A stretch of DNA of 64,000 nt from Symbiobacterium thermophilum (GCA_020725145.1 DYFO01000001.1:46855-110854), one strand, 5' to 3'; positions 12,694-44,268 are shown, counted from the first letter of the stretch. The notes: generated by a model not told the origin, from the sequence alone. Made by a program: numbers and translations.

Positions 12694-12776
12694 GAAGACT
12701 TAACATTCTGGATTCCGACAGGGCAGCCCAGGTTTATGTTACTTTTAGATCAGTCTAGACCCAGGGAGATTCACGG

Positions 12777-13589: not shown

Positions 13590-13592
13590 AAG

Positions 13593-15626: not shown

Positions 15627-15655
15627 ACCGGCAGGCAGAAGGGAGGATAAGTCAG

Positions 15656-17845: not shown

Positions 17846-17877
17846 CGGATGCGGCCCAAGCGAAAGGAGAGGGGAAC

Positions 17878-19221: not shown

Positions 19222-19231
19222 AGGAGCGTTA

Positions 19232-21166
19232 ATGGGCAGGCACACCGTCGTCTTCCAACCGGACGGGGTCAGCGTCAAGGTGGCGGAGGGAACCGAGCTC
19301 GGCCGCGCCGCCGCCATGGCCGGCATCCAACTCAAGAGCACCTGCGGAGGCGAGGGCACCTGCGGCCTCTGCGCGGTCAAGGTGCTGTCCGGGCGCTTCG
19401 CCACCCGGGAGGGCCGTATCTTGCCGGAGCGGCGCCGTAAGGGGATGGTGCTTGCCTGCCGTACGTGGGTTCAGGGCGACATGGAGGTGGAGATTCCGTC
19501 CACGTCGCGCCTGGCCGCCCACCAGGTGCTGGTGGAGGAGGGCGCCCGCCGGGAGATCGCCTTTGAGCGGGAGCTCGACCCCGTCGGCCGCTACGGGTTC
19601 CATCCCGTGGGCCACAAGATCCTGGCGGTGCTCGATCCGCCGACCCTCACCGACAACGCCTCGGACCTGTCGCGCCTGCTGACGCGGTTCCGCCGCGAGG
19701 ACGGACGGGCGGCTCCGGCCATCGGCCTGACCGCCCTGCGGCGGTTGCCCCGGGCGCTTCGGGAGGGCAAGTGGCGGGTGACCGTCACCCTGGTCGACGC
19801 GGGCGGGACGGAGGAGATGGTCCGGGTCGAACCCGGCGACAGCCGTCGGCCCCCTTACGGCCTGGCCGTCGACATCGGCACCACTTCCTGCGTCGTCCAC
19901 CTGGTGGACCTGCGCTCGGGATTGGCGGTCGACCGCCGGGGGAGCTTCAACCGGCAGGCCCGTTACGGCGACGACGTGATCACCCGCATCATCCACGCCG
20001 CCGAACGGCCCGAGGGCCTGTCCGAGCTGAATGCCGCGGTGCTGGAGACAATCAACGCGCTGGTGGACGAGCTCCTGGCGGCCAACGCGCTGGAGGCGGA
20101 GGACCTGATCGCCGCCGCGGTGGCCGGCAACACCACCATGACGCACCTCTTCCTGTCCATTCCCCCGGATCACATCCGGCTGGAGCCCTACCTTCCCGCC
20201 GCCGTGAGCTTCCCCGTGGTGCGGGCGGGCGAGCTGGGTCTCAAGCTCAACCCGGATGCGCCGGTCTACGTCTTTCCGGCGGTCGCAAGCTACGTCGGAG
20301 GAGACATCGTCTCCGGGGTGCTCCTGACCGACCTGGCGCATGCCGCGCCGGTGACCCTCTTCATCGACGTGGGCACCAACGGTGAGATCGTGCTGGGGAA
20401 CCGCGACTGGCTGGTGGCCTGCGCCTGTTCCGCCGGTCCCTGCTTCGAGGGGGGCGGGATCACCTGCGGCATGCGGGCTACCCCGGGAGCGATCGAGCGG
20501 GTGCGTGTGGAACCCGGGGGGCGGGAGGTCCGCCTGCAGACGGTAGGAGGCATGCCACCTGCCGGGATCTGCGGTTCGGGCATGATCGATGCCCTGGCGG
20601 CGCTGCACGAGGCGGGCGTGATCGACAGAAGCGGCAACTTCCGCGACCTGGACACTCCCCGGCTGCGGGAGGGAGAGGAAGGTCCCGAGTTCGTGCTCGC
20701 CGCGGCCCACGAGACCGGTGGCGAACGCGATATCGTGCTCACCGCGGCCGACCTCAAGAACCTGATCCGGGCCAAAGGAGCCATCTACGCCGGCATCCGC
20801 TCGCTGCTGGCGGCGGTGGAGCTCGGGGTTCAGGCCATCGAACGTGTGTACATCGCGGGAGGCTTTGGCAACTACCTTGATGTCCGCGACGCCATCCGGG
20901 TCGGCATGCTGCCCGACCTGGAGCTGGAGCGGTACCGGTTCGTGGGTAACAGCTCGGTCAAGGGAGCCCGCCTGGCGCTTGTGTCGCGGCCGGCGTGGGC
21001 CGAGGCGGAACGCATCGCCCGTCGCCTGACCTACCTCGAGCTCTCGGCAAGCTCCAGTTACATGGAGGAGTTCGTCTCGGCGCTTTTCCTGCCGCATACC
21101 GACCTTGACCAGTTCCCTTCGGTCCGGGACGCGGAGTTGGGGGTGAGACCGTGCCCCGGAAGGTAG
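19232..21166 (+). CDS. Reductive activator of the corrinoid Fe-S protein (RACo/orf7): [2Fe-2S] ferredoxin plus ASKHA ATPase
   Basis: The N-terminal plant-type ferredoxin motif is CGGEGTCGLCAVKV. The ~640-aa protein lies between acsC and acsF, as in Moorella. Confidence 0.85.
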   Translation: MGRHTVVFQPDGVSVKVAEGTELGRAAAMAGIQLKSTCGGEGTCGLCAVKVLSGRFATREGRILPERRRKGMVLACRTWVQGDMEVEIPSTSRLAAHQVLVEEGARREIAFERELDPVGRYGFHPVGHKILAVLDPPTLTDNASDLSRLLTRFRREDGRAAPAIGLTALRRLPRALREGKWRVTVTLVDAGGTEEMVRVEPGDSRRPPYGLAVDIGTTSCVVHLVDLRSGLAVDRRGSFNRQARYGDDVITRIIHAAERPEGLSELNAAVLETINALVDELLAANALEAEDLIAAAVAGNTTMTHLFLSIPPDHIRLEPYLPAAVSFPVVRAGELGLKLNPDAPVYVFPAVASYVGGDIVSGVLLTDLAHAAPVTLFIDVGTNGEIVLGNRDWLVACACSAGPCFEGGGITCGMRATPGAIERVRVEPGGREVRLQTVGGMPPAGICGSGMIDALAALHEAGVIDRSGNFRDLDTPRLREGEEGPEFVLAAAHETGGERDIVLTAADLKNLIRAKGAIYAGIRSLLAAVELGVQAIERVYIAGGFGNYLDVRDAIRVGMLPDLELERYRFVGNSSVKGARLALVSRPAWAEAERIARRLTYLELSASSSYMEEFVSALFLPHTDLDQFPSVRDAELGVRPCPGR

Positions 21167-21903
21167 CGGTGGCGGGTAAGGGGGGTACGGGGAAGACCAC
21201 GCTCGCCTCCCTGCTTATCCGGGTGCTGCTGGAGCAGGATCGGGGCACCGTGCTGGCCGTCGATGCCGATCCCAACTCCAACCTGCACGAGGCCCTGGGC
21301 CTCAAGGCGGAGCACACCATCGCCGACATCCTCGAGGAGGCGAAGGCGCCGGGACCGTCGCCCGCCGGCATGTCCAAGCACATGCTGGTCGAGTACCGCC
21401 TGCGCTCCATCCTGGTGGAGTCGCCGCGTCTGGATCTCCTGGTCATGGGAACCCCTGAAGGTCCGGGATGTTACTGCTATCCCAACGACCTTCTCAGGTC
21501 CCACATGGCCGGCCTGGCCCGGGCCTACGACTACCTCGTGGTCGACAACGAGGCGGGGCTCGAGCACCTGTCGCGCCGGGTGGCGCAGGACATGGACCTT
21601 ACCCTGGTCACCAGCGATGCCACCGTCCGCGGCATCCGCACCGCCGGGCGGGTACGGCAGCTGGTCGGCAACCTGGAACTTGACCCTGGTCGCCTGTGGC
21701 TGGTGGTGAACCGGTTGGAGGGAGACCTCGGCCCCCTGGAGGCCGAGATCGCCGCTACGGGGCTTGAACTGGCGGGGACCATACCCCAGGACCCTCTGGT
21801 GTCGCGGTACGATCTGGAGGGCAGGCCCCTTCGAGACCTCCCGGCCTCGTCGGCCGCCCTGCAGGCGGTGCGGGAGATAGCCGCGAGGGTTGGCTTAACC
21901 TGA
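21151..21903 (+). CDS. acsF: Second CooC-type P-loop ATPase (AcsF)
   Basis: [13 protein letters not shown] is the Walker A. GTG start overlaps the RACo 3' end. Confidence 0.85.
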
Positions 21904-21922
21904 GGGAAAGGAGACGGGGTTG

Positions 21923-23699
<1,777 letters not shown>

Positions 23700-23713
23700 A
23701 GGAGGCCTCAGTT

Positions 23714-24718
23714 TTGGCTGCACGAGGAGTGCTGGTGCTGGGCGGGGGGGTGGCCGGCATGGCCGCCGCCCTCTCGCTGGCCGCCATGGATTTCGAGGTA
23801 ACGCTGGTGGAGAAAGCGGCGGTGCCGGGCGGGCGCGCGGTCGGTTACGCGTGCAAGGCCACCGATCGCTGCCTGCACTGCGGGGTCTGCCTGGCCTCGG
23901 ATCTCGCCGAGGAGCTGGCGGCCTCACCGGTCGTCCTGCGCACCGGGACCCGGCTGGAGGGGCTCGAGGGCCGGCCGGGGGACTTTCGGGCAACCGTGAC
24001 CGGTGCCGAGCTTGCGGTGGGGGCGCTGGTGGTGGCGACGGGACTTGCGCCGGCGCCTGCCGCCGGGTGGCCGGATCTCGGCTACGGTCGCCTGGACGCG
24101 GTGATCACCGCGTCGGAGCTTGAGGAGCGGTGCCGGCGGCAAGGCCCGCCTGCCGCCCGCCGGGTGGCCTTCGTACAATGCGTGGGTTCGCGTAACCCCG
24201 CATGGGGCAAGGGTTACTGCTCCGAGGTGTGCTGCCCTTACGCCCTGCGGCTGGGGCTGGGCCTGGTTGCCGAGGCCGCGGCGGAGGTCACCGTGTTCTT
24301 CAACGACTTGCAGACCGCGGGAAAGAGCATGGCGACCGCACGCGAGCAGGCCCGCAAGGGGCTACGCCTGGTACAGGGGGTACCGTCGCGGGCGGCCGGT
24401 GTGGCCGCGGGAGTCGAGCTTCAGTTCGAGGATGTGCGCGCGGGCGGCGTCCGGCGCGAGGGGTTCGACCTCGTGGTGCTCTCCACCGGCATCTGGCCCG
24501 GCCCCGACACGGCCGCGCTCGCCCGGCTGCTGGGGATCAACACCGGCCCGACCGGTTTCTTCGCCGGCCATCCCGGGCAAAGCTGGCGATCCTCACGCCC
24601 GGGGATCTACCTTGCGGGCAGCTGCCAGAAGCCGCGCGGCATCGCCGACAGCATCGCCCACGGACGGGCGGCGGCGGCCCAGGTCGCGGCGGACCTCGAG
24701 GAGGTGAGGTCGGCTTGA
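23714..24718 (+). CDS. Short HdrA-like FAD flavoprotein (FAD domain with the HdrA Cys cluster only)
   Basis: TTG 23714 lies 8 nt after GAAGGAGG. The translation has a GGGVAG FAD motif and the HdrA-type CVGSRNPAWGKGYCSEVCC cluster. At 334 aa it lacks the inserted ferredoxin and C-terminal domains of canonical HdrA. Confidence 0.7.
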   Translation: MAARGVLVLGGGVAGMAAALSLAAMDFEVTLVEKAAVPGGRAVGYACKATDRCLHCGVCLASDLAEELAASPVVLRTGTRLEGLEGRPGDFRATVTGAELAVGALVVATGLAPAPAAGWPDLGYGRLDAVITASELEERCRRQGPPAARRVAFVQCVGSRNPAWGKGYCSEVCCPYALRLGLGLVAEAAAEVTVFFNDLQTAGKSMATAREQARKGLRLVQGVPSRAAGVAAGVELQFEDVRAGGVRREGFDLVVLSTGIWPGPDTAALARLLGINTGPTGFFAGHPGQSWRSSRPGIYLAGSCQKPRGIADSIAHGRAAAAQVAADLEEVRSA

Positions 24719-25905
24719 AGGTCGAGGTTGCCGTCGTCGGTGCCGGACCGAGCGGCCTTTCGTGCGCGGCGGCGCTCGTGCGGCTCGGCCGCAAGGTGGC
24801 GGTGCTCGAGGCCGCGGAGGCGACGGGCGGAACCCTGCGGGCGGCGCCCGGCTACCTCGCCCCGGCGGCCGAAGGCCGGACGCGGCTTCAGACCCTGCAG
24901 GCGGCCGCCGGCCCGGCGGCCTTGCTGACCGGCCATCCCGCGGGCTCCCTTTCCGGTGGGCCGGGCGCCTTCCGGCTCGAGGCGGGAAACCGGCGCCTCA
25001 CGGCCGGTGCCGTGGTGCTGGCCTCGGGCGTCCGGCGCCGGCTATCGCCGGCCGACCACGGGCTGGAGCCTGCCTACAACCTCCTGGGCCTTTCGGACAT
25101 GGCACGGCTGCTGGCCGATCCCCAGGCGTCGCTCGGCCGCCTGCGCGGCAGGCGCGTGGCCTTCTTCCTCGACGTATCGGCCCCCGACAGCCTGCGTCAA
25201 CAGGCGGCGGCCATGCATCTCGGCATCGCCGTCCGCCGGCAACTGGCGGCCGAGGTGCTGTGGTTCGGGCGCGACCTGAAGGTGGCCGGCGATGGTCTGG
25301 AGGCGCGGTACCGCGAGGCGCGCGACCTGGGGGTGACCTTCTTCCGGGACGCCGGCCGCCCTCCGATGCTGACGGCAACCGCCGGCGGCTACCGGGTGTG
25401 GGCCTGGCCGGAGGAAGGCGGCGAACCCGTGGAGGTGGCCATCGACCTGGCGGTGCTCGACGAACGCGAGGAGCCCTGCCTGCCCCAGTGGGACCTGGGA
25501 CCGCGCCGCGAGAACTCGCGGCTCGGGCACCGGTCGCCGCGGCCGGGCATCTTTGTGACCGGCAGCCTGCGCGCCGACCTCGATCTCGAGGGCTGCCTGG
25601 TGGACGGAGTGGCCGCCGCCGCGGTCGCCGATGCCTTCTTGCGGGGACTTGACGGCCTGGTGCGGGCGGAGGTGGACGCTCCGCGCTGCGCCCGCTGTCT
25701 TACATGCGTGCGCCTCTGTCCCCACCGCGCGATGGCCATCGCATGGTACCGCGAGGCGGACCGGGCGGCGGCCAAGGTGGACAAGGCCGCCTGCCGCGGC
25801 TGCGGGGTGTGCGTGGCCGCCTGTCCGGCCCTGGCCATCACCCTTACGACCTGCCCGGATGAGGACATCTACCGGCAGCTCGAGTCGGGGGGTCGAACCA
25901 CATGA
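24715..25905 (+). CDS. FAD-dependent pyridine-nucleotide-disulfide-oxidoreductase-like protein with a C-terminal 2x[4Fe-4S] ferredoxin domain (HdrA-related)
   Basis: TTGA overlap with the previous gene. The translation has VAVVGAGPSG and a C-terminus CARCLTCVRLCP...CRGCGVCVAACP. It lacks the CxGxRD...CC HdrA cluster. Confidence 0.65.
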   Translation: MKVEVAVVGAGPSGLSCAAALVRLGRKVAVLEAAEATGGTLRAAPGYLAPAAEGRTRLQTLQAAAGPAALLTGHPAGSLSGGPGAFRLEAGNRRLTAGAVVLASGVRRRLSPADHGLEPAYNLLGLSDMARLLADPQASLGRLRGRRVAFFLDVSAPDSLRQQAAAMHLGIAVRRQLAAEVLWFGRDLKVAGDGLEARYREARDLGVTFFRDAGRPPMLTATAGGYRVWAWPEEGGEPVEVAIDLAVLDEREEPCLPQWDLGPRRENSRLGHRSPRPGIFVTGSLRADLDLEGCLVDGVAAAAVADAFLRGLDGLVRAEVDAPRCARCLTCVRLCPHRAMAIAWYREADRAAAKVDKAACRGCGVCVAACPALAITLTTCPDEDIYRQLESGGRTT

Positions 25906-26297
25906 AGCTTTTGGCCTTCGTCTGCGAGCGCTCCGCCCTCCGGGCCGCGCGTGAGGCGCGCGAGCTGGGCGCCTGGCCCGAGGAGCTGGAACTGGTTGCC
26001 GTCCCCTGTTCCGGACGGATAGACGTGCTGCATATCACCGGGGCGCTGACCCGCGGGTACGCGGGCGTGCTGGTGGTGGGCTGCCATGAGGAGGCATGCG
26101 AGTTCGTGCAGGGGAACCTGGTCGCCCGGCGCCGCGTCGAGTACCTGCGGCGCCTGCTGGAGCAGGCCGGGGTGGACCCCGGCAGGGTGAGGATGGAGCT
26201 TGCGTCGCCGGCGGGTGCGCCGCGCCTGGCACGGGCCGCCCGCGAGCTGGTGGCGGAGATCTCCTGCCGGACCGGCGGGAAGGGGGAAGAGGCATGA
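25902..26297 (+). CDS. mvhD: MvhD-like hydrogenase iron-sulfur subunit
   Basis: ATGA overlap with the previous gene. The 131-aa protein has Cys residues spaced as in MvhD (CERSA...CSGRID...GCHEEACEF). Confidence 0.75.
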   Translation: MKLLAFVCERSALRAAREARELGAWPEELELVAVPCSGRIDVLHITGALTRGYAGVLVVGCHEEACEFVQGNLVARRRVEYLRRLLEQAGVDPGRVRMELASPAGAPRLARAARELVAEISCRTGGKGEEA

Positions 26298-26779
26298 GTG
26301 CGACTTCCGACAAGACCCCGCGAGTGGTCAACCCGCGTTTCAAGTACGAGGTGGCCGACCGTCCGGGAGGACAGAACCTCAAGGTGTGCTTTGGCTGCGG
26401 TGTCTGTACCGCCGGGTGCCCGGTGGCCGAGATCGATACCGCCTACAGCCCCCGCCGGATCATCCGGCTCGTGCTGCTGGGAATGGAAGAGGAAGTACTC
26501 AGCTCGGAGCTGATCTGGCTGTGCACCACCTGTTTCACCTGTTACGCCAGGTGCCCGCAGGACGTCAAGTTCACCGACGTGATGGGGGTGCTGCGCGAGC
26601 TGGCGGTGGAACGCGGTTACGTGGACCCCTCCTTCCCCGCCCGTCTGCGCCACATGGATGAGCTGGTGCAGACCTTGCGTCGCGACGCCGTGCGCCGGAT
26701 GGCCGCCGACCGGCGCCGGGCGGTGCCGGTCGCCGTTGACGAGCTCAAGGAGCTTGTGCGGGAGGTCGCCGATGCCTGA
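26294..26779 (+). CDS. hdrC: HdrC-like 2x[4Fe-4S] protein
   Basis: ATGA overlap with the previous gene. Two motifs are present: CFGCGVCTAGCP and CTTCFTCYARCP. Confidence 0.7.
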   Translation: MSATSDKTPRVVNPRFKYEVADRPGGQNLKVCFGCGVCTAGCPVAEIDTAYSPRRIIRLVLLGMEEEVLSSELIWLCTTCFTCYARCPQDVKFTDVMGVLRELAVERGYVDPSFPARLRHMDELVQTLRRDAVRRMAADRRRAVPVAVDELKELVREVADA

Positions 26780-29700
26780 AGCAGTGCGTGGGGCCAAGAC
26801 AGACGTGACCGGGTCGGTAACCGGCGCGGCGCTGGTGGTGGGGGGCGGTATCGCCGGCATGCAGGCCGCCCTGGACCTCGCCGAGGCGGGCTTTTACGTC
26901 TACCTCGTGGAGCGTTCGCCGTCCATCGGGGGTACCATGGCCCGTCTGGACAAGACCTTCCCCACCAACGACTGCGCCATGTGCATCCTTTCGCCGAAAC
27001 TGGTGGAGTGCGGGCGGCACCTCAACATCGAAACTTTGACCTGTGCCGAGGTGCTGGACCTTGAAGGGCAGCCCGGCAACTTCCGCGTCCGCGTCCGCCG
27101 CCACCCGCGCTACGTCGATCTCTCGAAGTGCACCGGCTGCGGAGACTGCGAGAAGGAATGCCCCGTCCGCAGGCCCAATGCGTACGAGGGTGGGCTCAGC
27201 CTCCGCAAGGCCATCTTCCGCCCGTTCCCGCAGGCCTACCCCAACGCCTTCGCCATCGAGAAGGCGGCCAGGCCCATGTGCCAGGTGGCCTGTCCCGCCG
27301 GGGTGCACGCGCAGGGTTACGTGGCGCTGATCGCCGAGGGCAAGTTCCGGGAGGCGGTGGCCCTGGTCCGGCGGGACAACCCGCTGCCGGCCGTCTGCGG
27401 CCGCGTCTGCCATCACCCCTGTGAGGCTTCCTGCCGCCGCGGCCTTGTCGACGAGCCGGTGGCCATCGCGGCCCTCAAGCGCTTCGTCGCCGATTACGAG
27501 CACGAGCTCGACGGGGAGATCGAACTTGCGCCGCGCGCCGAGCCCCGCCCGGAGAAAGTCGCGGTCGTGGGCTCGGGTCCCGCCGGACTGACCTGTGCGC
27601 ACTACCTTGCGATGGACGGCTTCGCGGTGACGGTGTTCGAGGCGTTGCCGGTCGCCGGCGGCATGCTGGCGGTGGGCATCCCGTCCTACCGCCTGCCGCG
27701 TCCGGTGCTGGAGACGGAAGTTCGCCAGATCGAGCGCATGGGGGTCAAGATCCGCACCGGCACCGCGCTGGGCCGCGATTTCAGCCTGGACGACCTGTGG
27801 CGGCAGGGCTACCGGGCGGTCTTCCTCGCGGTGGGTGCCCACCAGGACCAGAAGCTCGGGATACCCGGCGAGGAGTCTCGGCAAGTGGTGTCCGGCGTCC
27901 AGTTCCTGCGCCGCATCAACCTCGGCGAGGCGGTAGACGTGGGCCGGCGCGTGCTGGTGATCGGCGGCGGCAACGTGGCCGTCGACGCCGCCCGCAGCTG
28001 CCTGCGCATGGGCGCCGAAGAGGTCACCGTCGTCTACCGCCGTTCCCGCGCCGAGATGCCCGCCGCCCCGCATGAGGTGGCGGCGGCGGAGGAGGAAGGC
28101 GTGCGTTTTATCTTCCTGACCGCACCGGCCGCGGTGCTGGGGGACGGCGAAGTCCGCGGGTTGCGGTGCCTGCGGATGCAGCTCGGTGAGGCCGACGCCT
28201 CCGGGCGCCGCCGCCCGGTGCCGGTCCCCGGCTCCGACTTCACGCTGCATGCCGACCAGATCATCGTGGCCATCGGCCAGACGCCCGACACCGCTTTCGC
28301 CGGCGAGCACCGGACGGCGCTGGTCGGCCGCTGGGGCACGCTGACGGCCGACCCCCAGACGCTGGCCACCGGACTCCCCGGGGTGTTTGCCGGTGGCGAT
28401 GCGGTCAGCGGGCCGGCCACGGTGGTGGAGGCCATCGCCGCCGGGCGTCGGGCCGCCGCCGCCATCCGGCGCTACCTTGACGGCCGGGACCTGAAGGACG
28501 GTCTTGCCGCCCGCCCCGAACCCGTGGTGGGCGAGGTGCCCTGGCAGACCCCCCGGGCTCCCCGGGCGGTGATGCCCACCCTCGCCTCGTCGGAACGCCT
28601 CCGCGGCTTCCAGGAGGTGGAGCTGGGTCTTGACGAGGCGGCCGCGGTGGCCGAGGCCCGGCGTTGTCTGGACTGCGGCATCTGCGCCGAGTGCATGGAG
28701 TGCGAGCGTGTCTGCCGCGCCCGCGCGGTGGTCCACGACCAGCCCGAGGAGATCCGCGAGCTTGCAGTGGGGGCGGTGGTGCTGTGTCCCGGCTTTGACA
28801 CCACCGCGCCCGAGCGGCTCTTCCACCTCGGTTACCGCCGTTTCCCCAACGTGGTGACCAGCGTGGAGTTCGAGCGCATCCTCTCGGCCTCCGGTCCCTT
28901 CGAGGGCCACGTGGTTCGCCCCTCCGACCGCCAAAAGCCCCATCGCATCGCCTTCGTGCAGTGCGTGGGCTCGCGCGACCTGCGCTATGGCGAGGGCTAT
29001 TGCTCCTCGGTGTGTTGCATGTACGCGTTGAAGGAAGCGGTGATCGCCCGCGAGCACGTGGCCGGCGACCTCGACGTCACCGTGTTCTACATGGACATGC
29101 GGGCCTACGGCAAGGATTTCGAGCACTACCTGAACCGCGCGCAGGCCGAATACGGGGTGCGGCTGGTCCGGGCCAAGGTGGAAGCGGTGGAAGCCGGCAA
29201 GACGCCCGGAGGTCTTTCGGTCTGCTACGCCGCCGACGACGGGCGGCCGGCGCGCGAGGAGTTCGACATGGTAGTACTGTCGGTGGGCATGCGCCCCTCC
29301 TCCGAGGTGGTGGAGCTCGCCCGCCGTTTGGGTATCAGCCTCGACGAGTATGGCTTCCCCCGCCCGGTGCCCGGACACCCCACGCATACCTCGCTGCCCG
29401 GCGTGCTGGTGGCCGGACCTTTCGCCGCGCCCAAGGACATTCCGGAAACGGTTGTCGAGGCCAGCGCGGCGGCGGCCGAAGCGGGGAAGGTGCTGGCGTT
29501 GCGACGCGGCGAGCTGGTGCGGCGCCGCGAGTACCCGCCCGAGCGCCCGGTGGCCAACCGGGCTCCGCGCGTGGGCGTCTTCGTCTGCCACTGCGGCATC
29601 AACATCGGCGGGGTGGTCAGGGTGCCCGAAGTCGTGGAGCACGCCCGGCGGCTGCCGGGCGTGGTCTGGGCCGAGGAGAACCTTTACACCTGCTCGCAGG

Positions 29701-31217
29701 ACACCCAGGACCGCATCAAGCAACTCATCGCCGAACACGACCTCAACCGGGTGGTGGTAGCCTCGTGCTCGCCGCGCACCCACGAGCCGCTCTTCCAGCA
29801 GACCATCCGTGAGGCGGGGCTCAACCCTTACCTTTTCGAGATGGCCAACATCCGCGACCAGTGCTCCTGGGTGCACATGCAGGAACCGGACGCGGCCACC
29901 GCCAAGGCCAAGGACCTGGTGACGATGGCGGTGGCCAAGGCCCGCCACCTCGAGCCGCTTTACCGCGTGTCGCTACCGGTGACGCAGGCGGCGCTGGTCG
30001 TGGGAGGAGGGGTGGCGGGGCTCACCGCCGCGCTGGGCTTGGCCCGCCAGGGCTTCCCGGTATGCCTGGTGGAGCGGCAAGCCGAGCTCGGCGGTCAGGC
30101 GCGGCGGTTGACCGCCACCCTGGAGGGTGAGGACGTCCCCGCCCTGCTGGCGGAGCTTGTGGGCGAGGTAACGGCCCACCCGCTGATCACCGTGCATACG
30201 GGGTCGACGGTCCGTGAGGTGGAGGGCTTCGTGGGCAACTTCTCCAGCAAGCTGTCCACGCCGGCCGGCGAGGTCACTTTCCGGCACGGCGTGGTGGTAG
30301 TGGCCACGGGAGCCTTTCCGGCCGTGCCCGAAGGCTACCGGTACGGCGAGGACGCGCGCGTGCTGACCCTTCTGGAGATGGAGGAGGCACTGACCGCCGG
30401 CCGCCTCCCGGCGGGCGACGTGGTGATGATCGGCTGCGTGGGTTCGCGGGACGAGACGCGGCCGTACTGCAGCCGCGTTTGTTGCTCGCACATGGTGAAG
30501 AACGCCCTTGCCCTGCGCAGACGTTATCCCGACCGCGAGGTGTACGTGCTCTACCGCGACATGCGCACCTACGGGCGCAAGGAGGATTACTACCGCCAGG
30601 CCCGCGAGGCGGGGGTGACCTTCCTGCGTTACCCGTCGGAGCGACCTCCCGTGCTGAGCGAGCGCGACGGGCGGCTCGGGGTAGAGGTCTTCGATCCCCT
30701 GCTCGGCGAGAAGCTGGTGATCGGCGCCGGGGTCGTCGGGCTGGCCTCCGGTATCGAACCCCACGGCGATGCCCGTACGCTGGCGCAGCTACTCAAGGTG
30801 CCGCTGAACGCGGACGGGTTCTTCCTGGAGGCCCACGTCAAGCTCCGTCCGGTGGACTTTGCGACCGAGGGGGTGTTCGTGGCGGGTCTTTGCCACGCCC
30901 CCAAGACCCTCACCGAGAGCATGGCGCAGGCGCTGGCGGCGGTAGGGCGGGCCACGACGGTGGTGGCGCGCGAGGCCATCGAGGCCGGCGGCCCGGTGGC
31001 GGAGGTGCGCGAGGGCCGCTGCAGCGGTTGCCGGACCTGTGAGGGGGTCTGCCAGTACGCCGCCATCAAGGTGGACCCCGACCGGGGCCGCGCCGTGGTG
31101 GAAAAGGCCCTGTGCAAGGGCTGCGGCGCCTGCGCCGCCACCTGCTGGTGCGGCGCCGTCAGCCTGCGCGGCTTCACCGAGGAGCAGATCCTGGCGGAGG
31201 TGACGGCCCTGCTATGA
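26772..31217 (+). CDS. Giant (~1480 aa) HdrA-GltD-HdrA fusion flavo-iron-sulfur oxidoreductase
   Basis: ATG 26772 overlaps the hdrC stop. The N-terminal HdrA-like FAD domain is followed by [4Fe-4S] motifs, a GltD/NADPH-glutamate-synthase-beta-like module (KVAVVGSGPAGLTCAHYL...VLVIGGGNVAVDAARS), ferredoxin motifs, the HdrA core (CVGSRD...GYCSSVCC) and its thioredoxin-like insert. A second HdrA-like FAD domain (ALVVGGGVAGLTAAL...CVGSRDETRPYCSRVCC) and a C-terminal ferredoxin follow. Confidence 0.75.
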   Translation: MPEAVRGAKTDVTGSVTGAALVVGGGIAGMQAALDLAEAGFYVYLVERSPSIGGTMARLDKTFPTNDCAMCILSPKLVECGRHLNIETLTCAEVLDLEGQPGNFRVRVRRHPRYVDLSKCTGCGDCEKECPVRRPNAYEGGLSLRKAIFRPFPQAYPNAFAIEKAARPMCQVACPAGVHAQGYVALIAEGKFREAVALVRRDNPLPAVCGRVCHHPCEASCRRGLVDEPVAIAALKRFVADYEHELDGEIELAPRAEPRPEKVAVVGSGPAGLTCAHYLAMDGFAVTVFEALPVAGGMLAVGIPSYRLPRPVLETEVRQIERMGVKIRTGTALGRDFSLDDLWRQGYRAVFLAVGAHQDQKLGIPGEESRQVVSGVQFLRRINLGEAVDVGRRVLVIGGGNVAVDAARSCLRMGAEEVTVVYRRSRAEMPAAPHEVAAAEEEGVRFIFLTAPAAVLGDGEVRGLRCLRMQLGEADASGRRRPVPVPGSDFTLHADQIIVAIGQTPDTAFAGEHRTALVGRWGTLTADPQTLATGLPGVFAGGDAVSGPATVVEAIAAGRRAAAAIRRYLDGRDLKDGLAARPEPVVGEVPWQTPRAPRAVMPTLASSERLRGFQEVELGLDEAAAVAEARRCLDCGICAECMECERVCRARAVVHDQPEEIRELAVGAVVLCPGFDTTAPERLFHLGYRRFPNVVTSVEFERILSASGPFEGHVVRPSDRQKPHRIAFVQCVGSRDLRYGEGYCSSVCCMYALKEAVIAREHVAGDLDVTVFYMDMRAYGKDFEHYLNRAQAEYGVRLVRAKVEAVEAGKTPGGLSVCYAADDGRPAREEFDMVVLSVGMRPSSEVVELARRLGISLDEYGFPRPVPGHPTHTSLPGVLVAGPFAAPKDIPETVVEASAAAAEAGKVLALRRGELVRRREYPPERPVANRAPRVGVFVCHCGINIGGVVRVPEVVEHARRLPGVVWAEENLYTCSQDTQDRIKQLIAEHDLNRVVVASCSPRTHEPLFQQTIREAGLNPYLFEMANIRDQCSWVHMQEPDAATAKAKDLVTMAVAKARHLEPLYRVSLPVTQAALVVGGGVAGLTAALGLARQGFPVCLVERQAELGGQARRLTATLEGEDVPALLAELVGEVTAHPLITVHTGSTVREVEGFVGNFSSKLSTPAGEVTFRHGVVVVATGAFPAVPEGYRYGEDARVLTLLEMEEALTAGRLPAGDVVMIGCVGSRDETRPYCSRVCCSHMVKNALALRRRYPDREVYVLYRDMRTYGRKEDYYRQAREAGVTFLRYPSERPPVLSERDGRLGVEVFDPLLGEKLVIGAGVVGLASGIEPHGDARTLAQLLKVPLNADGFFLEAHVKLRPVDFATEGVFVAGLCHAPKTLTESMAQALAAVGRATTVVAREAIEAGGPVAEVREGRCSGCRTCEGVCQYAAIKVDPDRGRAVVEKALCKGCGACAATCWCGAVSLRGFTEEQILAEVTALL

Positions 31218-31651
31218 GTGAGGCCTGGGAGCCCAAGATCGTCGCATTCCTGTGTCACTGGTGCAGCTACGCCGGGGCGGACCTCGCCGGGATCTCCCGG
31301 ATGCAGTACCCCCCGAACGTGCGGGTGATCCGGGTACCGTGCTCGGGCGCGGTCAACCCGTTCTACCTCATCAAGGCCCTGCAACGCGGAGCGGATGGGG
31401 TGCTGGTGTCGGGCTGCCACCCCGGTGACTGCCACTATCTGGCGGGCAACCTGGTCGCCCGCCGCAAGTTCGCCATGCTCAAGGCCTTGCTGGAACACGT
31501 GGGGCTCGAGGAAGGGAGGGTCCAGTTCTCCTGGGTGTCGGCGGCCGAGGGGCAGAAGTTCGCGGACGTGATCCGCGAGGTCACCGAGACCGTGCGGGCG
31601 CTGGGCCCTGCCGGTCGCTTTCGGAAAGCGAGGCGAGCGCTGTGTCGGTGA
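31214..31651 (+). CDS. mvhD: Second MvhD-like (FlxD-like) iron-sulfur protein
   Basis: ATGA overlap with the giant ORF. The translation MSEAWEPKIVAFLCHWCSYAG...CSGAVNP...GCHPGDCHY is MvhD-like. Confidence 0.75.
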   Translation: MSEAWEPKIVAFLCHWCSYAGADLAGISRMQYPPNVRVIRVPCSGAVNPFYLIKALQRGADGVLVSGCHPGDCHYLAGNLVARRKFAMLKALLEHVGLEEGRVQFSWVSAAEGQKFADVIREVTETVRALGPAGRFRKARRALCR

Positions 31652-32586
31652 ACGCCCTGCTGCGCGAGACCGCCGCCCGGCTACTGGCCGAAGGGACCGT
31701 GCGGCTGGTCGTGGGCTGGGAGAAGGGCACGCTGCCGCTACGCACCACTCCGCTCCTGGCCCGTACGGCCGAGCAGGCGGATCGCCTGGTGGCCGACGCC
31801 ACCTGCGATCAGAATCTGGCCGTCTACCTCACCCGGTTCAAGGATGAGAAGGTGGCGCTGGTGGCCCGGCCCTGCGAAGCCCGCACCCTGGTCGAGTACT
31901 GCCGCGAGCACCGGGCGAGCCCCGACCGCGTGCTGGCCATCGGCGTCCCCTGCACCGGCATGCTCTCCCGCAGGGCGCTGGAGCGCCGGCTGTCCGGCCG
32001 CCTGCCGGCCGCCGGGCGCCTCGAAGGCGACCTGGTGATCTGCTCCGGCGAGGACTGGGAGGAGCGCCTGCCCTTGACCGACCTGCTGGAACCGGTCTGC
32101 TACGGTTGCCGGCTGCCGGGCGCCGACCGCTACTGGAGGGTGCTCGGCGAATCAAGACCGCCCGCCGGCGACCGCTACGCGGAGCTCGATCGTTTCCGGC
32201 AGATGGCCGGCGAGGAGCGTTACGCCGCCTTCTGCCGGGCGGTGGAGCGCTGCATTCGCTGCTACGCCTGCCGTCAGGCCTGCCCCATGTGCTACTGCCC
32301 CGAGTGCTTCAGCGACCGCAGTGCCCCCACCTGGGTGGGTTCCTCGGACGACCTTTCCGACACCATGGTCTTCCACCTCACCCGCACGCTGCACCTGGCC
32401 GGGCGCTGCGTGGACTGCGGCGCCTGCGTCCGCGCCTGCCCGGTCGGTGTCGACCTCCGCCACCTCCACCTGCGGCTCGGACGCGAGGCGGAGGAGCGCT
32501 TTGCGTACCGTCCGGGGCTGGACGCCGCCGACCGTCCCCTGGTGGCCACCTTCCGGCCGGACGACCCGGAGGAGTTCATCAGATGA
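31642..32586 (+). CDS. Poly-ferredoxin-like Fe-S protein (FlxC-like / FrhB-family-like)
   Basis: It has multiple Cys motifs (CIRCYACRQACPMCYCPECF, CVDCGACVRACP). It lies between mvhD and the sulfhydrogenase-like subunits. Confidence 0.55.
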   Translation: MSVNALLRETAARLLAEGTVRLVVGWEKGTLPLRTTPLLARTAEQADRLVADATCDQNLAVYLTRFKDEKVALVARPCEARTLVEYCREHRASPDRVLAIGVPCTGMLSRRALERRLSGRLPAAGRLEGDLVICSGEDWEERLPLTDLLEPVCYGCRLPGADRYWRVLGESRPPAGDRYAELDRFRQMAGEERYAAFCRAVERCIRCYACRQACPMCYCPECFSDRSAPTWVGSSDDLSDTMVFHLTRTLHLAGRCVDCGACVRACPVGVDLRHLHLRLGREAEERFAYRPGLDAADRPLVATFRPDDPEEFIR

Positions 32587-33626
32587 GGAGAGGGGAAGCT
32601 GCCGTGGCCGGCGTGATCCTCGAGCACTCCGAACTGAACCGCATCCTGGCCCACGTCGCCGGGCAGGCCCGGCTCTGGGTGGCGACCGGGGAGGGAGAGG
32701 AAGCGGCCTTTTTGCCCTACCGCCCGGGAATCCCCCTCCGGAGGGGACCGGGACCGACCCGGCGCACCGCCAAGGAGATCTTCTTCCCGCGCACCGAGGC
32801 CTTGTTCACCTTCCATGAGGCCGACGGCAAACCCCGCCTGGAGCCGGCGAAGGTGGATGACGGACCACTGGTCGTCTTCGGGCTGCGCCCGTGTGATGCC
32901 CGCGCGCTTTGCCTGCTGGACCCGGTTTTCGAGGACCCGCTGTGGCCCGACCGCCTGTACGGTGGCCGGCGGGCGCGGGCCATCCTGGTGGGGATGGCCT
33001 GCTCGCAACCTTCACGCGCGTGCTTTTGCACCTCGGTAGGGGGAGACCCCGCGGGTGAGGAGGGGCTGGACGTCATACTGGTCGCGTTGGACGACGCTTA
33101 CCTGGCCCGAGCGACCACCGACCGCGGGGCGGAGTGGCTGGAAGGACTGGGCTTTTCGCCCGCCCCGCCCGAGGCGGAGGCGGCCGCCGCCCGGGTGGCC
33201 GAGACCGCCCGGCGCGCCCTTGCGGCCGTCCCGGCCGATGGTCTGAAGGAACGGCTGGACGGGCGCTTCGAGCACCCCGTCTGGGACCGCCTGCACGAGC
33301 GTTGCCTGGGGTGCGCCGCCTGCACTTACCTGTGCCCCACCTGCCACTGCTTCGACATCGTGGACGAGGGCGGCCCGGGTGAGGGTGTGCGCCTGCGCAA
33401 CTGGGATTCCTGCATGTTCGCGCTGTTCACGCTGCACGCGTCGGGCCACAACCCCCGCATGACCGGGAAGGAACGGATGCGGCAGCGCATCATGCACAAG
33501 TTCAACTACTACCCGGAGCGCCAGGGCCGCCCGGCCTGCGTGGGCTGTGGGCGATGCGTGGAGATCTGTCCCGTGAACCTGGACCTCCGACAGGTGATCG
33601 CCGAACTTGAGGGGGTGGAAGCGTGA
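32583..33626 (+). CDS. Fe-S subunit related to sulfhydrogenase beta / AsrA / FlxB
   Basis: ATGA overlap with the previous gene. Motifs are CLGCAACTYLCPTCHCF and CVGCGRCVEICP. Confidence 0.6.
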   Translation: MRRGEAAVAGVILEHSELNRILAHVAGQARLWVATGEGEEAAFLPYRPGIPLRRGPGPTRRTAKEIFFPRTEALFTFHEADGKPRLEPAKVDDGPLVVFGLRPCDARALCLLDPVFEDPLWPDRLYGGRRARAILVGMACSQPSRACFCTSVGGDPAGEEGLDVILVALDDAYLARATTDRGAEWLEGLGFSPAPPEAEAAAARVAETARRALAAVPADGLKERLDGRFEHPVWDRLHERCLGCAACTYLCPTCHCFDIVDEGGPGEGVRLRNWDSCMFALFTLHASGHNPRMTGKERMRQRIMHKFNYYPERQGRPACVGCGRCVEICPVNLDLRQVIAELEGVEA

Positions 33627-34459
33627 ACCCGTACCTGCCCCACCTGGCCACCATCGACGAGATCATCCCCGAGACGGCCTCGCAGGACGTGAAAACCTTC
33701 CGCGTGGTCTTCGCCGACGCTGCCGTCCGCGCAAGCTTCAGCTACGAGCCGGGGCAGTTCGCCGAGCTGTCGCTTCTCGGCGTCGGCGAGGCTCCCATCT
33801 CCATCACCTCCTCGCCGACGCAGCGGGGCTACCTCGAGTTCGCCGTCAAGCGGGCCGGGGTGGTCACCACCGCCCTGCACTGGAGCCGGCCCGGCGATCA
33901 CCTCGGCATCCGCGGTCCGTACGGCAACCATTTCCCTTACCGGGAAATGGAGGGCAAGAACATCGTGTTCATCGGTGGCGGCATCGGCCTTGCCCCGCTG
34001 CGCTCGCTGATCAACTACGTGCTGGACCCGTCCAACCGCTCGCGCTATGCCGCGGTCAGCATCATCTACGGCGCGCGCAGCCCCGGGGACCTGGTGTTCA
34101 AGTGGGAGCTTGACGCGTGGCAACGGCGCCAGGACACCGAGCTTCACGTCACCGTGGACCGCGGCGACGAGGGTTGGACCGGGCGCGTGGGTTTCGTCCC
34201 GCAGGTGCTGATGGACGTGGCACCGAGCCCGGCCAACACGGTGACCGTCACCTGCGGCCCCCCTATCATGATCAAGTACGTGCTGGAGAACCTGGAGAAG
34301 CTCGGCTTTGCCCCCGACCAGATCGTGACCACGCTGGAGATGCGCATGAAGTGCGGGATCGGCAAGTGCGGCCGCTGCAACATCGGTTCCCGCTACGTGT
34401 GCCAGGACGGCCCGGTCTTCACCTACGAACAACTGCGGCAGATGCCGGCCGAGTACTAG
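33623..34459 (+). CDS. FAD/NAD(P)-binding oxidoreductase related to sulfhydrogenase gamma / AsrB / FlxA, with a C-terminal [2Fe-2S]
   Basis: GTGA overlap with the previous gene. The translation has an FNR-like fold (RVVF...FAELSLLGVGEAPISI) and a C-terminal CGIGKCGRC. Confidence 0.65.
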   Translation: MNPYLPHLATIDEIIPETASQDVKTFRVVFADAAVRASFSYEPGQFAELSLLGVGEAPISITSSPTQRGYLEFAVKRAGVVTTALHWSRPGDHLGIRGPYGNHFPYREMEGKNIVFIGGGIGLAPLRSLINYVLDPSNRSRYAAVSIIYGARSPGDLVFKWELDAWQRRQDTELHVTVDRGDEGWTGRVGFVPQVLMDVAPSPANTVTVTCGPPIMIKYVLENLEKLGFAPDQIVTTLEMRMKCGIGKCGRCNIGSRYVCQDGPVFTYEQLRQMPAEY

Positions 34460-34481
34460 CCGCGGAGGGGAAGGGAGAGCC

Positions 34482-35138
34482 TTGATCGTCTGCGAGCGCA
34501 AGCCGCTGTCCACCATCCTGGAGAGCCTCCGGAGCTACCGCAAGGTGGTGATCGCCGGCTGTTCGGAGTGCGTCACCGTGTGCCATGCCGGCGGCGAGAA
34601 GGAGGTGGCCCTGCTTCGCGACCTCATCTTGCTGGCCCGCAATGACCTGACGGTCACCACCGAAGTGCTCACGCGCCAGTGCGACGTCGAGTTCCTGGAG
34701 GCGCTGGACGGGCATGTCGAAAAGGCCGAGTGCGTGGTCTCCATGGCCTGCGGCGTTGGGGTGCAGTTCCTGGCCGAACGTTACCCCGCAACCTGGGTGA
34801 TACCGGCGGTCGACACCCGCTTCGCCGGCGGCTCCCGCCAGCCCGGCACCTGGGAGGAGCGCTGCGGCCTGTGCGGCGACTGCGTGCTGCATCTCACCGG
34901 CGGCATCTGCCCCGTCGCCCGCTGCTCCAAGAGCCTGCTCAACGGTCCCTGCGGCGGCTCTCAGGGCGGCCGTTGCGAGGTCGGCGAGGAGCTAAGCTGC
35001 GCCTGGCACGAGATCCACGACCGCCTCGAAAAGCTCGGAAGGCTCGATCTCCTGGAGGTCGTGCTTCCCCCCAAGGACTGGTCCCGCGCCAGGGACGGTG
35101 GACCCCGCAAGCTTCTCCGGGAGGACGTCGCGGTATGA
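34482..35138 (+). CDS. metV: MetV (MTHFR-associated Zn/Fe-S subunit, 'MTHFR C-terminal' family)
   Basis: The 218-aa Cys-rich protein (CSECVTVCH...CGLCGDCVLHLTGGICPVARC) is ATGA-coupled to metF. Confidence 0.7.
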   Translation: MIVCERKPLSTILESLRSYRKVVIAGCSECVTVCHAGGEKEVALLRDLILLARNDLTVTTEVLTRQCDVEFLEALDGHVEKAECVVSMACGVGVQFLAERYPATWVIPAVDTRFAGGSRQPGTWEERCGLCGDCVLHLTGGICPVARCSKSLLNGPCGGSQGGRCEVGEELSCAWHEIHDRLEKLGRLDLLEVVLPPKDWSRARDGGPRKLLREDVAV

Positions 35139-36064
35139 GTAACGGCCAAAGCAAGCTCGAACGGCTGCTCCACGACGGGCACTTCGTGGTCACGGCGGAA
35201 GTGGGCCCTCCCCAGGGGGCCGCGGCCGACGGCATCCGGCACCACGCCGAGCTCCTCAAGGACGTGACCGACGGCCAGAACCTCACCGACAACCAGACGG
35301 CCATCGTCCGTCTGTCCAGCATAGCCGCGGGGGTGCACGTGCTGGCGGCCGGCGGCGAGCCGATCATCCAGATGACCTGCCGCGACCGTAACCGCATCGC
35401 CATCCAGAGCGACCTGCTGGGGGCCTGGAGCCTGGGCATCCGCAACCTGCTGTGCCTGAGCGGCGACCACCAGTCCTTCGGCAACCACCCCTCCGCCCGC
35501 AACGTATTCGACCTGGATTCGGTGCAGCTGGTCAAGATGGTGCGCGAGATGGCCGACCCCGGCATCTTCCAAAACGGCGAGGCCATCGCCGAGAACGCGC
35601 GACCCCGCTTCTTCGTGGGTGCGGCGGAGAACCCCTTCGCCGAGCCCTTTGCCTTCCGCGTGCGCCGCCTGGCGAAGAAGGTGGCGGCGGGTGCCCAGTT
35701 CATCCAGACCCAGGCCATCTTCGACCTTCCCCGCTTCGAGCGGTGGATGCAGATGGTGCACGACGCGGGCCTCGATGAAAAGGTGTACATCCTCGGAGGC
35801 ATCTGCCCTGCCAAGTCTTTCGGTGCCCTGCGCTACATGAGCAAGGTGCCCGGCATGGCCGTGCCCGACGCGTTGCTCGACCGTATGAAGGGTGTGGAAC
35901 GCAAACGGCAGGCCGAAGAAGGCATCCGCATCGCCGTGGAAACCATCCAGCGCCTGCGCGAGATCAAGGGGGTCCGCGGGGTGCACGTGATGGCCATCAT
36001 GTGGGAGGAGATGGTTCCCCGCATCGTGGAGGAAGCCGGGCTTTTGCCGAGGCCCGTAGCCTGA
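35135..36064 (+). CDS. metF: 5,10-methylenetetrahydrofolate reductase MetF
   Basis: The 309-aa TIM-barrel MTHFR (FVVTAEVGPP...) is the last gene of the redox/WL block. Confidence 0.85.
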   Translation: MSNGQSKLERLLHDGHFVVTAEVGPPQGAAADGIRHHAELLKDVTDGQNLTDNQTAIVRLSSIAAGVHVLAAGGEPIIQMTCRDRNRIAIQSDLLGAWSLGIRNLLCLSGDHQSFGNHPSARNVFDLDSVQLVKMVREMADPGIFQNGEAIAENARPRFFVGAAENPFAEPFAFRVRRLAKKVAAGAQFIQTQAIFDLPRFERWMQMVHDAGLDEKVYILGGICPAKSFGALRYMSKVPGMAVPDALLDRMKGVERKRQAEEGIRIAVETIQRLREIKGVRGVHVMAIMWEEMVPRIVEEAGLLPRPVA

Positions 36065-36126
36065 CGGGCGCCGACACCCATAACCTGCGTCAGGAGGCGT
36101 AAAGACATGCCGCAATACGGGGTCCG

Positions 36127-36679: not shown

Positions 36680-36765
36680 TCCGGGCGCCGGAGGAGCCCG
36701 CCCCCTTCCCGGCGAATTGTCAGTAAGTTCCCGCAGGCTCTGGACGCCGGCATGCTCCTTGGGGG

Positions 36766-38241: not shown

Positions 38242-38301
38242 ATATTGCCACCTCACCGAACATTCCGTCTATATTGGTGGAACTACGGGGAGGTGGTCCC
38301 G

Positions 38302-44157: not shown

Positions 44158-44268
44158 CGTCCCTTCCCCCGGGGGGAATATGCTGGAAAAGATCACTTCT
44201 TCACCGCGAACGCGGTTCCCTGCCGGCATCGTGACGAGTTGGCCAGGGCAATCTAGGCGGGCAGACGT

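Follow-up and report, generated by a model that had tools for sequence, protein, structure and literature searches.

How a methylene-tetrahydrofolate reductase (MTHFR) of the heterodisulfide reductase (Hdr) type can be organised without the subunit HdrB is the question raised by a gene cluster of Symbiobacterium thermophilum, which lies in a stretch of 64,000 nt (GCA_020725145.1 DYFO01000001.1:46855-110854; this whole stretch is called the window below). The cluster comprises 11 + strand genes at 23714-36064, immediately 3' of acsE, for Hdr-like, MvhD-like and Flx-like proteins and for the MTHFR subunits MetV and MetF. Reduction of methylene-tetrahydrofolate (methylene-THF) is the most exergonic step of the Wood-Ljungdahl pathway, and its coupling to energy conservation has long been debated. 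In the reading that we prefer, with a probability of roughly 0.55, the cluster is the Hdr-type MTHFR part of the Wood-Ljungdahl (acs) operon in an HdrB-less form, in which the Flx proteins possibly replace the partner of HdrB. This is not a new kind of system: the Hdr type is a fourth type of MTHFR known from Moorella and Sporomusa (PMC9430772), and a MetFV-HdrABC-MvhD complex has been described for Moorella (Mock et al. 2014; PMC5861303). What is new is the HdrB-less, Flx-containing form together with a split HdrA-like/MvhD trio.

The gene cluster and its giant HdrA

The window has about 69% G+C and its raw lists of open reading frames (ORFs) are therefore crowded with shadow ORFs; gene models were built from frame plots of G+C at third codon positions (GC3) and from inspection of start codons and ribosome-binding sites. 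The first start of the cluster is at 23714 and its last stop at 36064, and the genes, with their best domain matches, are as follows.

23714..24718, + strand, g1: short HdrA-like flavoprotein, 334 aa (Pfam Pyr_redox_2, 1e-12; NCBIfam HdrA2 segments, 1e-49)
24715..25905, + strand, g2: second HdrA-like flavoprotein, 396 aa (Pfam Pyr_redox_2 and Fer4 families; NCBIfam C-terminal part of HdrA)
25902..26297, + strand, g3: MvhD/FlpD-like [2Fe-2S] protein, 131 aa, partner of g1-g2 (PF02662, 8e-31)
26294..26779, + strand, g4: HdrC-like 2x[4Fe-4S] protein, 161 aa (Fer4_8/Fer4_17; TIGR03290, 3e-29)
26772..31217, + strand, g5: giant HdrA ("HdrL" or Moorella type), 1481 aa (HdrA segments and Fer4_20/GltD)
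31214..31651, + strand, g6: FlxD-type MvhD, 145 aa, directly 3' of the giant gene (PF02662, 3e-55)
31642..32586, + strand, g7: FlxC-like iron-sulfur protein, 314 aa (Pfam Fer4 families and a weak FrhB_FdhB_C match)
32583..33626, + strand, g8: FlxB/sulfhydrogenase-beta/AsrA-like iron-sulfur protein, 347 aa (PF17179 Fer4_22, 6e-34)
33623..34459, + strand, g9: FlxA/HydG/AsrB/PyrK-like protein, 278 aa (FAD_binding_6; NAD_binding_1, 9e-17; DHODB_Fe-S_bind, 4e-11)
34482..35138, + strand, g10: MetV, Cys-rich small MTHFR subunit, 218 aa (PF12225, 4e-36)
35135..36064, + strand, g11: MetF, catalytic MTHFR subunit, 309 aa (PF02219, 9e-40, full length)

The gene calls of the Joint Genome Institute (JGI) on contig Ga0246235_100078 of metagenome 3300029892 have the same lengths as these models (396, 131, 161, 1481, 145, 314, 347, 278, 218 and 309 aa). 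The g1 gene starts with TTG, preceded by a GGAGG ribosome-binding site. Overlaps of 4 nt (TTGA, ATGA or GTGA) join g1/g2, g2/g3, g3/g4, g5/g6, g7/g8, g8/g9 and g10/g11, those of g5/g6 and of metV/metF being ATGA, and longer overlaps are found at g4/g5 (8 nt) and g6/g7 (10 nt); the only gaps are 14 nt between acsE and g1 and 22 nt between g9 and g10, before metV. A promoter and terminator scan of 22800-36900 gave nothing beyond the expectation from shuffled sequences, and an Rfam scan of the window gave no match.

A complete acs operon precedes the cluster, which sits at the end of this operon after acsE.

12759..23699, + strand: acs operon with cooC, acsA (carbon monoxide dehydrogenase, CODH), acsB, acsC, RACo, cooC2, acsD and acsE (Pfam)
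22908-23699, + strand: acsE, the last gene of this operon (Pfam Pterin_bind)

In gene order, the Pfam matches of the acs operon are CbiA, Prismane (3e-156), ACS_CODH_B_C/CdhC, CdhD with FeS, RACo domains, CbiA, CdhD and Pterin_bind. This order is presumably that of Moorella Moth_1204-1197. The locus tags of acsE (Moth_1197) and of Moth_1194-1191 are confirmed in the literature (PMC6895022).

We mapped the giant HdrA by alignment to the solved methanogen HdrA (5odc_A) and to NfnB/GltD structures, and four segments can be distinguished.

26814..27263, + strand: module 1 part a, aa 15-164, corresponding to HdrA 141-290 (start of the thioredoxin reductase (TrxR)-like FAD domain and first half of the inserted ferredoxin domain, C120-C130)
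27267..28664, + strand: GltD/NfnB-like insertion, aa 166-631 (Pfam Fer4_20, 3e-20, and Pyr_redox_2)
28665..29546, + strand: module 1 part b, aa 632-925, of which aa 632-856 correspond to HdrA 287-511 (second ferredoxin half, C638-C648, and rest of the TrxR-like domain)
29562..31214, + strand: module 2, aa 931-1481, of which aa 931-1084 correspond to HdrA 3-156 and aa 1343-1477 to HdrA 510-646

Module 1 lacks the N-terminal domain and keeps the equivalent of Cys197 (C71), and its part b carries the CxGSRD..YCSxVCC motif and an E701/K754 signature. Its inserted ferredoxin domain is interrupted by the NfnB/GltD-like insertion, which has two [4Fe-4S] clusters, FAD and an NAD(P)H Rossmann fold (GGGNVAVD...VYRRS) and whose matches in the PDB are NfnB (4ylf_B, 2e-100; 5jca_L, 3e-100) and GltD (8e-74). 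In module 2 the N-terminal (CHCG) domain is present, with a further TrxR-like FAD domain (E1204/K1243) and a C-terminal 2x[4Fe-4S] ferredoxin domain; the Cys197 motif and the inserted ferredoxin domain are both missing. Both flavin sites thus retain the Glu/Lys pair that is the literature marker of bifurcating HdrA flavins; in a 12-sequence alignment from several phyla, C71, E701/K754 and E1204/K1243 are invariant or nearly so, E701 and K754 being invariant. No Moorella-type giant HdrA was found in the PDB. NADPH specificity, which we considered from the VYRRS motif, was dropped, since this motif is invariant across the family and yet the Moorella enzyme is reported to use NADH. Selenocysteine, suggested by in-frame stops in giant genes extracted from other genomes, was not adopted either, the stops coming mostly from a 29-codon upstream extension.

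The published HdrA of Moorella thermoacetica (162.8 kDa, 1487 aa) has the same plan, namely an extra ferredoxin/TrxR-like module interrupted by a GltD domain and a C-terminal part (aa 922-1487) without the inserted ferredoxin domain, with E696/K750 and E1204/K1246 (PMC9430772); it has been described as a fusion of two HdrA domains, one of which has lost Cys197 and the other the N-terminal domain (Chadwick et al. 2022, PMC9012536). The likeness extends to the whole enzyme, since MetF, MetV, MvhD, HdrC and a giant HdrA of about 1480 aa are common to both, with the GltD-type NAD(P)H/FAD module inside the first HdrA module, a second HdrA module after it and E/K at both flavin sites, and in both the cluster closes the acs operon, immediately behind acsE, in a syntenic arrangement. 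Three features differ in the window: no HdrB or other CCG-domain protein is encoded in the 64 kb, three Flx-like genes stand between mvhD and metV, and a split HdrA-like pair with a second MvhD stands between acsE and hdrC.

The giant HdrA is accordingly the ordinary HdrA of Hdr-type MTHFR, neither an assembly fusion nor new. The idea that hdrA and gltD were wrongly joined into the giant ORF by assembly or gene calling, and that the missing hdrB is an assembly gap, retains practically no probability and is already refuted by several results. More than 8000 proteins are homologous at E<=1e-20; nearly all of the best 120 have 1465-1518 aa and 98-99% coverage, three of 1656-1667 aa covering 75-76%, and the homologues include proteins of the complete isolate genomes of Desulfoscipio sp. 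XC116 and Ca. Formimonas warabiya. Moreover, a single frame with a GC3 of 0.89 runs over 4.4 kb, the JGI contig carries an independent call of the same giant gene, the 8-nt hdrC-hdrA overlap leaves no space for a lost gene, and two independent contigs (L082 and L083 in the comparison below) show the identical arrangement.

Such proteins have been met under several names. The HdrL class was named in 2009 (Strittmatter et al., PMC2702500; its definition is also given in PMC5947623) for large soluble fusions of HdrA and glutamate-synthase-type parts with an NAD(P)H-binding GltD-type region, followed by mvhD, which corresponds to g6 here; the HdrL loci of the organisms of 2009 adjoin dsr, fdh or hdrABC genes, and some HdrL proteins contain selenocysteine. 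HdrL was then thought to be unique to D. autotrophicum (PMC2702500), but the family is in fact very widespread: g5-type loci number at least 596 in species-representative genomes, with hosts in Bacillota, Desulfobacterota, Chloroflexota, Acidobacteriota, Planctomycetota, Atribacteria, Asgard archaea and others. In the HdrA-NfnB fusions of ANME-1 (HdrA9-11, PMC9012536) an NfnB-like insertion of about 500 aa likewise interrupts the inserted ferredoxin domain, whereas these proteins are archaeal, are described as single HdrA modules without fusion to a second module and were not found beside metF in ANME-1. NfnAB of Thermotoga maritima and Pyrococcus furiosus resembles the cluster in two places, the g5 insertion being close to NfnB (the large subunit of NfnI; 2e-100 to 3e-100) and g9 having the NfnA/PyrK-type FAD-NAD-[2Fe-2S] architecture. 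It differs in that the NfnB-like part is internal to the giant HdrA here and not a separate protein of a heterodimer, and that g9 lies 2.4 kb downstream in a Flx/sulfhydrogenase-gamma-type set with two extra iron-sulfur proteins.

A preliminary description, made from the sequence of the window, had listed the gene content, the domains of the giant ORF and the translational coupling, all of which are borne out by the gene models, the Pfam and NCBIfam matches and the junctions, and the assembly fusion that it named as a possible refutation is contradicted by the abundance of full-length homologues of 1465-1518 aa. It had also contrasted the giant ORF with Moorella, and this contrast has to be given up because the protein type is the same (a 1487-aa HdrA interrupted by GltD, PMC9430772; HdrL, PMC2702500).

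Absence of HdrB and distribution of the Flx genes

HdrB is absent from about 70 kb around the cluster, on a contig of 101.6 kb. PF02754, the CCG domain, had no match in the 52 window ORFs, called or candidate, that went through Pfam, among them all 11 cluster genes; at least three coding-like ORFs outside this Pfam scan (57236-57979, 61171-62163 and 62120-63625) were covered by a six-frame search with hidden Markov models (HMMs). A regular expression for the CCG motif, run over six frames of the 64 kb, gave no match in a coding frame, its sole match being off-frame and of low complexity. Two HMMs made from related loci, one for HdrB (30 sequences) and one for the CCG domain (104 sequences), recovered their positive controls and found nothing when run on six-frame ORFs of 40 aa or more; their best E-values, 1.2 and 0.036 at about 10 bits or less, are noise. 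Ten of 10 CCG-motif ORFs collected from related loci were confirmed by Pfam as HdrB or HdrCB fusions. The two models are complementary, because the two-CCG HdrB HMM misses the single-CCG HdrCB fusions of L013 and L041, which the CCG-domain HMM recovers. Beyond the window start, 5.8 kb of the contig hold pilus genes and no CCG protein. Proteins of the DsrC family did not turn up among the window ORFs scanned with Pfam.

The hdrC gene is kept. The g4 protein has two CxxCxxCxxxCP motifs and matches the model for subunit C of CoB-CoM heterodisulfide reductase (TIGR03290) under its equivalog cut-off, and it has no HdrB partner in the window.

For a comparison with other genomes, the window proteins (tblastn) and the CCG HMM were searched against 85 loci, numbered with L here. 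Adjacency of HdrL-MvhD-MetV-MetF was seen in about 30 of 80 loci from many phyla, mostly with a gene for HdrB or for an HdrCB fusion as immediate neighbour of the giant gene, and HdrL-MvhD-MetVF with HdrB in this place is the Moorella arrangement. In about 20 loci, HdrL is followed by a FlxD-type MvhD and FlxC-FlxB-FlxA. The MvhD of g6 belongs to this second company, with 63-76% identity to MvhDs directly before flxCBA-like genes in many phyla and 41-58% to MvhDs of Flx-less clusters. When Flx and CCG proteins were tallied, in MetVF loci with enough flanking sequence and uncorrected for shared ancestry, the following distribution was obtained.

Flx absent, CCG present: 19 loci
Flx present, CCG absent: L017, L020, L057, L062, L082, L083, L085
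Flx present, CCG present: L013, L084 (both single-CCG HdrCB fusions)
Flx absent, CCG absent: L044

Among these assessable MetVF-linked loci, Flx and HdrB thus appear almost mutually exclusive, which we regard as an as yet unproven lead on the third redox partner of the enzyme. Because 19 of the 20 Flx-less loci keep hdrB in their flanks, an operon that has lost it shows a marked change, and one that recurs.

The closest relatives preserve the window arrangement in detail. In L082, from the metagenome-assembled genome (MAG) GCA_031082145.1, and in L083, a JGI contig, the giant proteins are 79% and 67% identical to g5, and both loci follow the window gene for gene from acsB over acsE and g1-g9 to metVF and lack a CCG protein; L085, from a Limnochordia MAG, has the same gene set in another order, again without CCG. 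Altogether this gene set without CCG was found in at least seven other contigs, which are the two close relatives and MAGs of Limnochordia, Bacillota, Clostridiales, Spirochaetes and Atribacteria. In a rough neighbour-joining tree of 63 giant proteins, calculated without support values, the window groups with L082, L083 and L085, and the other HdrB-less Flx/MetVF loci are spread over at least two other branches of a larger clade whose members are mostly associated with Flx. The window arrangement is therefore a conserved and recurrent variant. It shows that an HdrB-less version of the enzyme system, with an NAD(P)H module of the Flx type and the additional HdrA-like/MvhD trio, is stably inherited and recurs in several uncultured lineages. 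A cultured relative with a related cluster is the isolate Desulfoscipio sp. XC116, whose genes run acsE-HdrL-MvhD-FlxCBA-HdrCB-...-MetVF.

The extra trio is also not confined to the window, since g1-g2-MvhD stands beside metVF in L003, L023, L044, L074, L082, L083 and L085. Its first member has a TrxR-like FAD domain that retains the HdrA cluster motif CxGSRx..YCSxVCC, and in g2 this Cys-cluster motif is gone and a C-terminal 2x[4Fe-4S] ferredoxin domain is present.

Some variation among these loci is worth recording. The FlxD-type MvhD and flxCBA always stand together (compare L013 5380-8700 with window 31214-34459), and the HdrA-like gene before them varies: most loci, the window among them, have the giant HdrA here, and L013 has the split g1-g2 pair. 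Because this preceding gene differs, gene order leaves unsettled which flavoprotein Flx feeds. Some genomes have two metVF sets, as in L003, where one follows a g1-g2-like pair and the other a giant HdrA (1-4900 and 18500-20800). Two giant HdrA genes occur in one locus elsewhere, for example in Desulfoscipio sp. XC116 (L084 22602-24422). Full-length giant HdrA proteins of archaea (L043, L064, L080, L040) show 47-55% identity and come from MAGs of Asgard (Promethearchaeota, Hodarchaeota), Bathyarchaeia and Thermoplasmatota; some of these loci have Flx-like and HdrB genes nearby.

A possible electron path and its alternatives

The composition of g6-g9 resembles that published for FlxDCBA, the assignment of g8 and g7 to FlxB and FlxC being tentative. 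The g9 protein is predicted from its domains to bind NAD(P)H, FAD and a [2Fe-2S] cluster, its NCBIfam matches being PRK08345 (2e-75), HydG (3e-67) and an AsrB-type model (2e-57). The matches of g8 to HydB (1e-46) and AsrA (2e-42) are both under the equivalog cut-offs, and g7 is paralogous to g8 in the CxxCxxCxxxCPxCxC region (BLASTP, 3e-08). FlxABCD is reported to be an NADH dehydrogenase module that feeds HdrABC (Ramos et al. 2015, as cited in later papers). By published domain descriptions, FlxABCD-HdrABC of Desulfovibrio vulgaris shares with the cluster a FlxA-like NAD(P)H/FAD/[2Fe-2S] protein, an MvhD-like FlxD and probably two HydB-like iron-sulfur proteins, all encoded beside hdrA and hdrC. 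The cluster differs from it in the order flxDCBA after hdrA, in the giant GltD-containing HdrA and in the lack of HdrB, the subunit thought to reduce DsrC, the likely high-potential acceptor here being MetVF and not a disulfide. We found no literature that links Flx/Flox genes to MetVF or to Wood-Ljungdahl MTHFR, or that reports the HdrB-less form with Flx genes, in a search that left most subscription journals outside.

The cluster plausibly encodes a methylene-THF reductase system that is flavin-based and linked to NAD(P)H. The path proposed here is modelled on the solved HdrABC-MvhAGD architecture and on the published Flx-Hdr and Moorella models. NAD(P)H would be oxidised at the GltD/NfnB-like module of the giant HdrA, at FlxA (g9) or at both; electrons from FlxA would pass through the FlxB and FlxC clusters to the [2Fe-2S] cluster of FlxD/MvhD (g6) and on to an HdrA FAD. 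The giant HdrA may act as a covalent pseudo-heterodimer that mimics the HdrA homodimer. From its bifurcating FAD, the downhill branch would lead over the HdrC-like 2x[4Fe-4S] protein and the MetV clusters to the flavin of MetF, where methylene-THF would be reduced, and the uphill branch would use the HdrA ferredoxin domains to reach ferredoxin or a different acceptor of low potential. The E0' of methylene-THF reduction is about -200 mV. Such flavin-based electron bifurcation would be reversed during acetate oxidation. HdrB would be dispensable for the MetVF branch in the HdrB-less variant, and the Flx module might replace the third redox partner that HdrB serves in the Moorella enzyme. No homologue of MetV was found in the PDB.

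In published work on Hdr-type MTHFR, NADH reduces benzyl viologen and reduced viologen reduces methylene-THF (PMC5861303, PMC9430772), and MetVF of Sporomusa ovata physically interacts with HdrA, HdrB and MvhD (Kremp et al. 2022, PMC9430772). The recurrent loss of HdrB with gain of Flx gives a usable lead on the third partner, under the hypothesis that Flx stands in for HdrB's partner.

A different view of the same genes is that separate, co-regulated enzymes are encoded, MetVF alone being ferredoxin-dependent as in Clostridium ljungdahlii and the Hdr/Flx/MvhD proteins forming one or two independent NAD(P)H:ferredoxin oxidoreductases of the Nfn or Flx-Hdr kind that balance redox pools. We hold this to be quite unlikely. 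According to two reports (PMC8760232, PMC8515935), MetVF on its own does catalyse a ferredoxin-dependent MTHFR reaction in a number of acetogens, some HdrL-MvhD-FlxCBA clusters have no metVF in their vicinity (for example L001, L005, L006, L041 and L042), and both the g5 insertion, nearest to NfnB, and g9, in the NfnA/PyrK family, would suit such oxidoreductases. Against it stand the conservation across phyla of the HdrL-MvhD-MetV-MetF adjacency, the translational coupling that runs to 22 nt before metV, the contacts of MetVF with HdrA/MvhD in S. ovata pull-downs (PMC9430772) and the Moorella complex (PMC5861303).

A bolder proposal goes beyond the HdrB-less Hdr-type MTHFR that we prefer and takes the variant as a distinct functional class, in which FlxABC(D) takes the role of HdrB, a pyridine nucleotide is the third partner, NADH, NADPH and ferredoxin are coupled in an Nfn-like manner and HdrC is wired directly to MetV; we regard it as doubtful. 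If Flx does take this role, the near-exclusive distribution of Flx and HdrB would be a natural experiment on the function of HdrB in acetogens.

Several points weigh against the HdrB-less Hdr-type reading itself. The variant is described from its genes, and the equivalence of g5 with Moth_1194 was set by published architecture, length and residue numbers. The system would have two NAD(P)H-type entry modules, for which this reading does not account, and in L013 the Flx genes come after the split g1-g2 pair instead of the giant HdrA, so that gene order does not determine whether Flx is connected to the giant HdrA. In S. ovata no activity coupled to NAD(P)H or ferredoxin was detected (PMC9430772). 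To these are added two points on HdrB: our inspection covers about 70 kb of the 101.6-kb contig, and Thermacetogenium phaeum, in which hdrA-mvhD-metVF adjoins acsE, has its constitutively expressed hdrB and hdrC in a different cluster (PMC6895022).

These last two points support an explanation in which the enzyme is the canonical MetFV-HdrABC-MvhD complex and hdrB, or hdrBC, is supplied in trans from another locus. Type I Acetothermia offer a similar case, with metVF-hdrA-mvhD in one place and hdrBC elsewhere beside mvhAG (PMC9586279), and hdrABC is frequently not co-localised with metFV-mvhD (Poudel et al.). We nevertheless consider supply in trans improbable. In the window hdrC is kept, with an 8-nt overlap with the start of the giant hdrA, and hdrB alone is missing; this hdrC-only state is conserved in relatives at 79% and 67% identity and, within +/-10 kb, in five further lineages. 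In addition, 19 of the 20 assessable Flx-less MetVF-linked loci have hdrB within 10-kb flanks, mostly directly beside the giant gene.

The preliminary description had seen no CCG-domain (HdrB) protein and had named such a domain, nearby or inside the giant ORF, as a possible refutation; the Pfam, motif and HMM checks over 64 kb plus 5.8 kb found none. A metVF-hdrA-mvhD cluster without hdrB has published precedents, the hdrBC genes being located elsewhere in the genome in T. phaeum (PMC6895022) and type I Acetothermia (PMC9586279), and the arrangement recurs in many MAGs. The suggestion of an organisation different from any characterised complex can be retained only where it concerns the lack of HdrB, the presence of the Flx module and the additional HdrA-like trio, and not for the giant HdrA; the supercomplex proposed there is hypothetical.

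Neighbouring genes

Directly before cooC-acsA lie genes for a MoxR-like AAA ATPase (9571-10644), a VWA/CoxE-like protein (10535-11992) and a DUF3786 protein (12049-12693), which may be a maturation or accessory set for CODH and acetyl-CoA synthase. Upstream of the window start (L086 1-7139), genes resembling those of type IV pili and type II secretion were found (T2SSF, two pseudopilins, PilM, PilN and PilO), and these precede a Wzy_C/TPR protein that runs into the window start.

On the other side, metF is followed by an intergenic region of about 660 nt (36064-36727) with small unannotated ORFs only: one of 101 aa has no Pfam match, and JGI calls genes of 81 aa and 30 aa. This region gave no Rfam match and no terminator-like site above chance. 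Just after it, 36727-39831 encodes an HpaB-family protein (HpaB_N, 7e-93; HpaB, 6e-67) and an AMP-dependent ligase, the ligase being found 3' of the cluster also in L082. Because the HpaB family also includes 4-hydroxybutyryl-CoA dehydratases, the two may be a pair of a CoA-ester pathway rather than an aromatic hydroxylase.

Farther downstream, an IS200/IS605-type Y1 transposase (45998-46729; PF01797, 3e-24) adjoins a B12-binding radical SAM gene (44257-45951). A URO-D-family protein (3e-14) is encoded at 48691-49719; this family also includes corrinoid-dependent methyltransferases of the MtaA type, and the protein could feed methyl groups into the pathway. Finally, fumarate hydratase, malic enzyme and both subunits of succinyl-CoA synthetase are encoded consecutively at 56188-61369.

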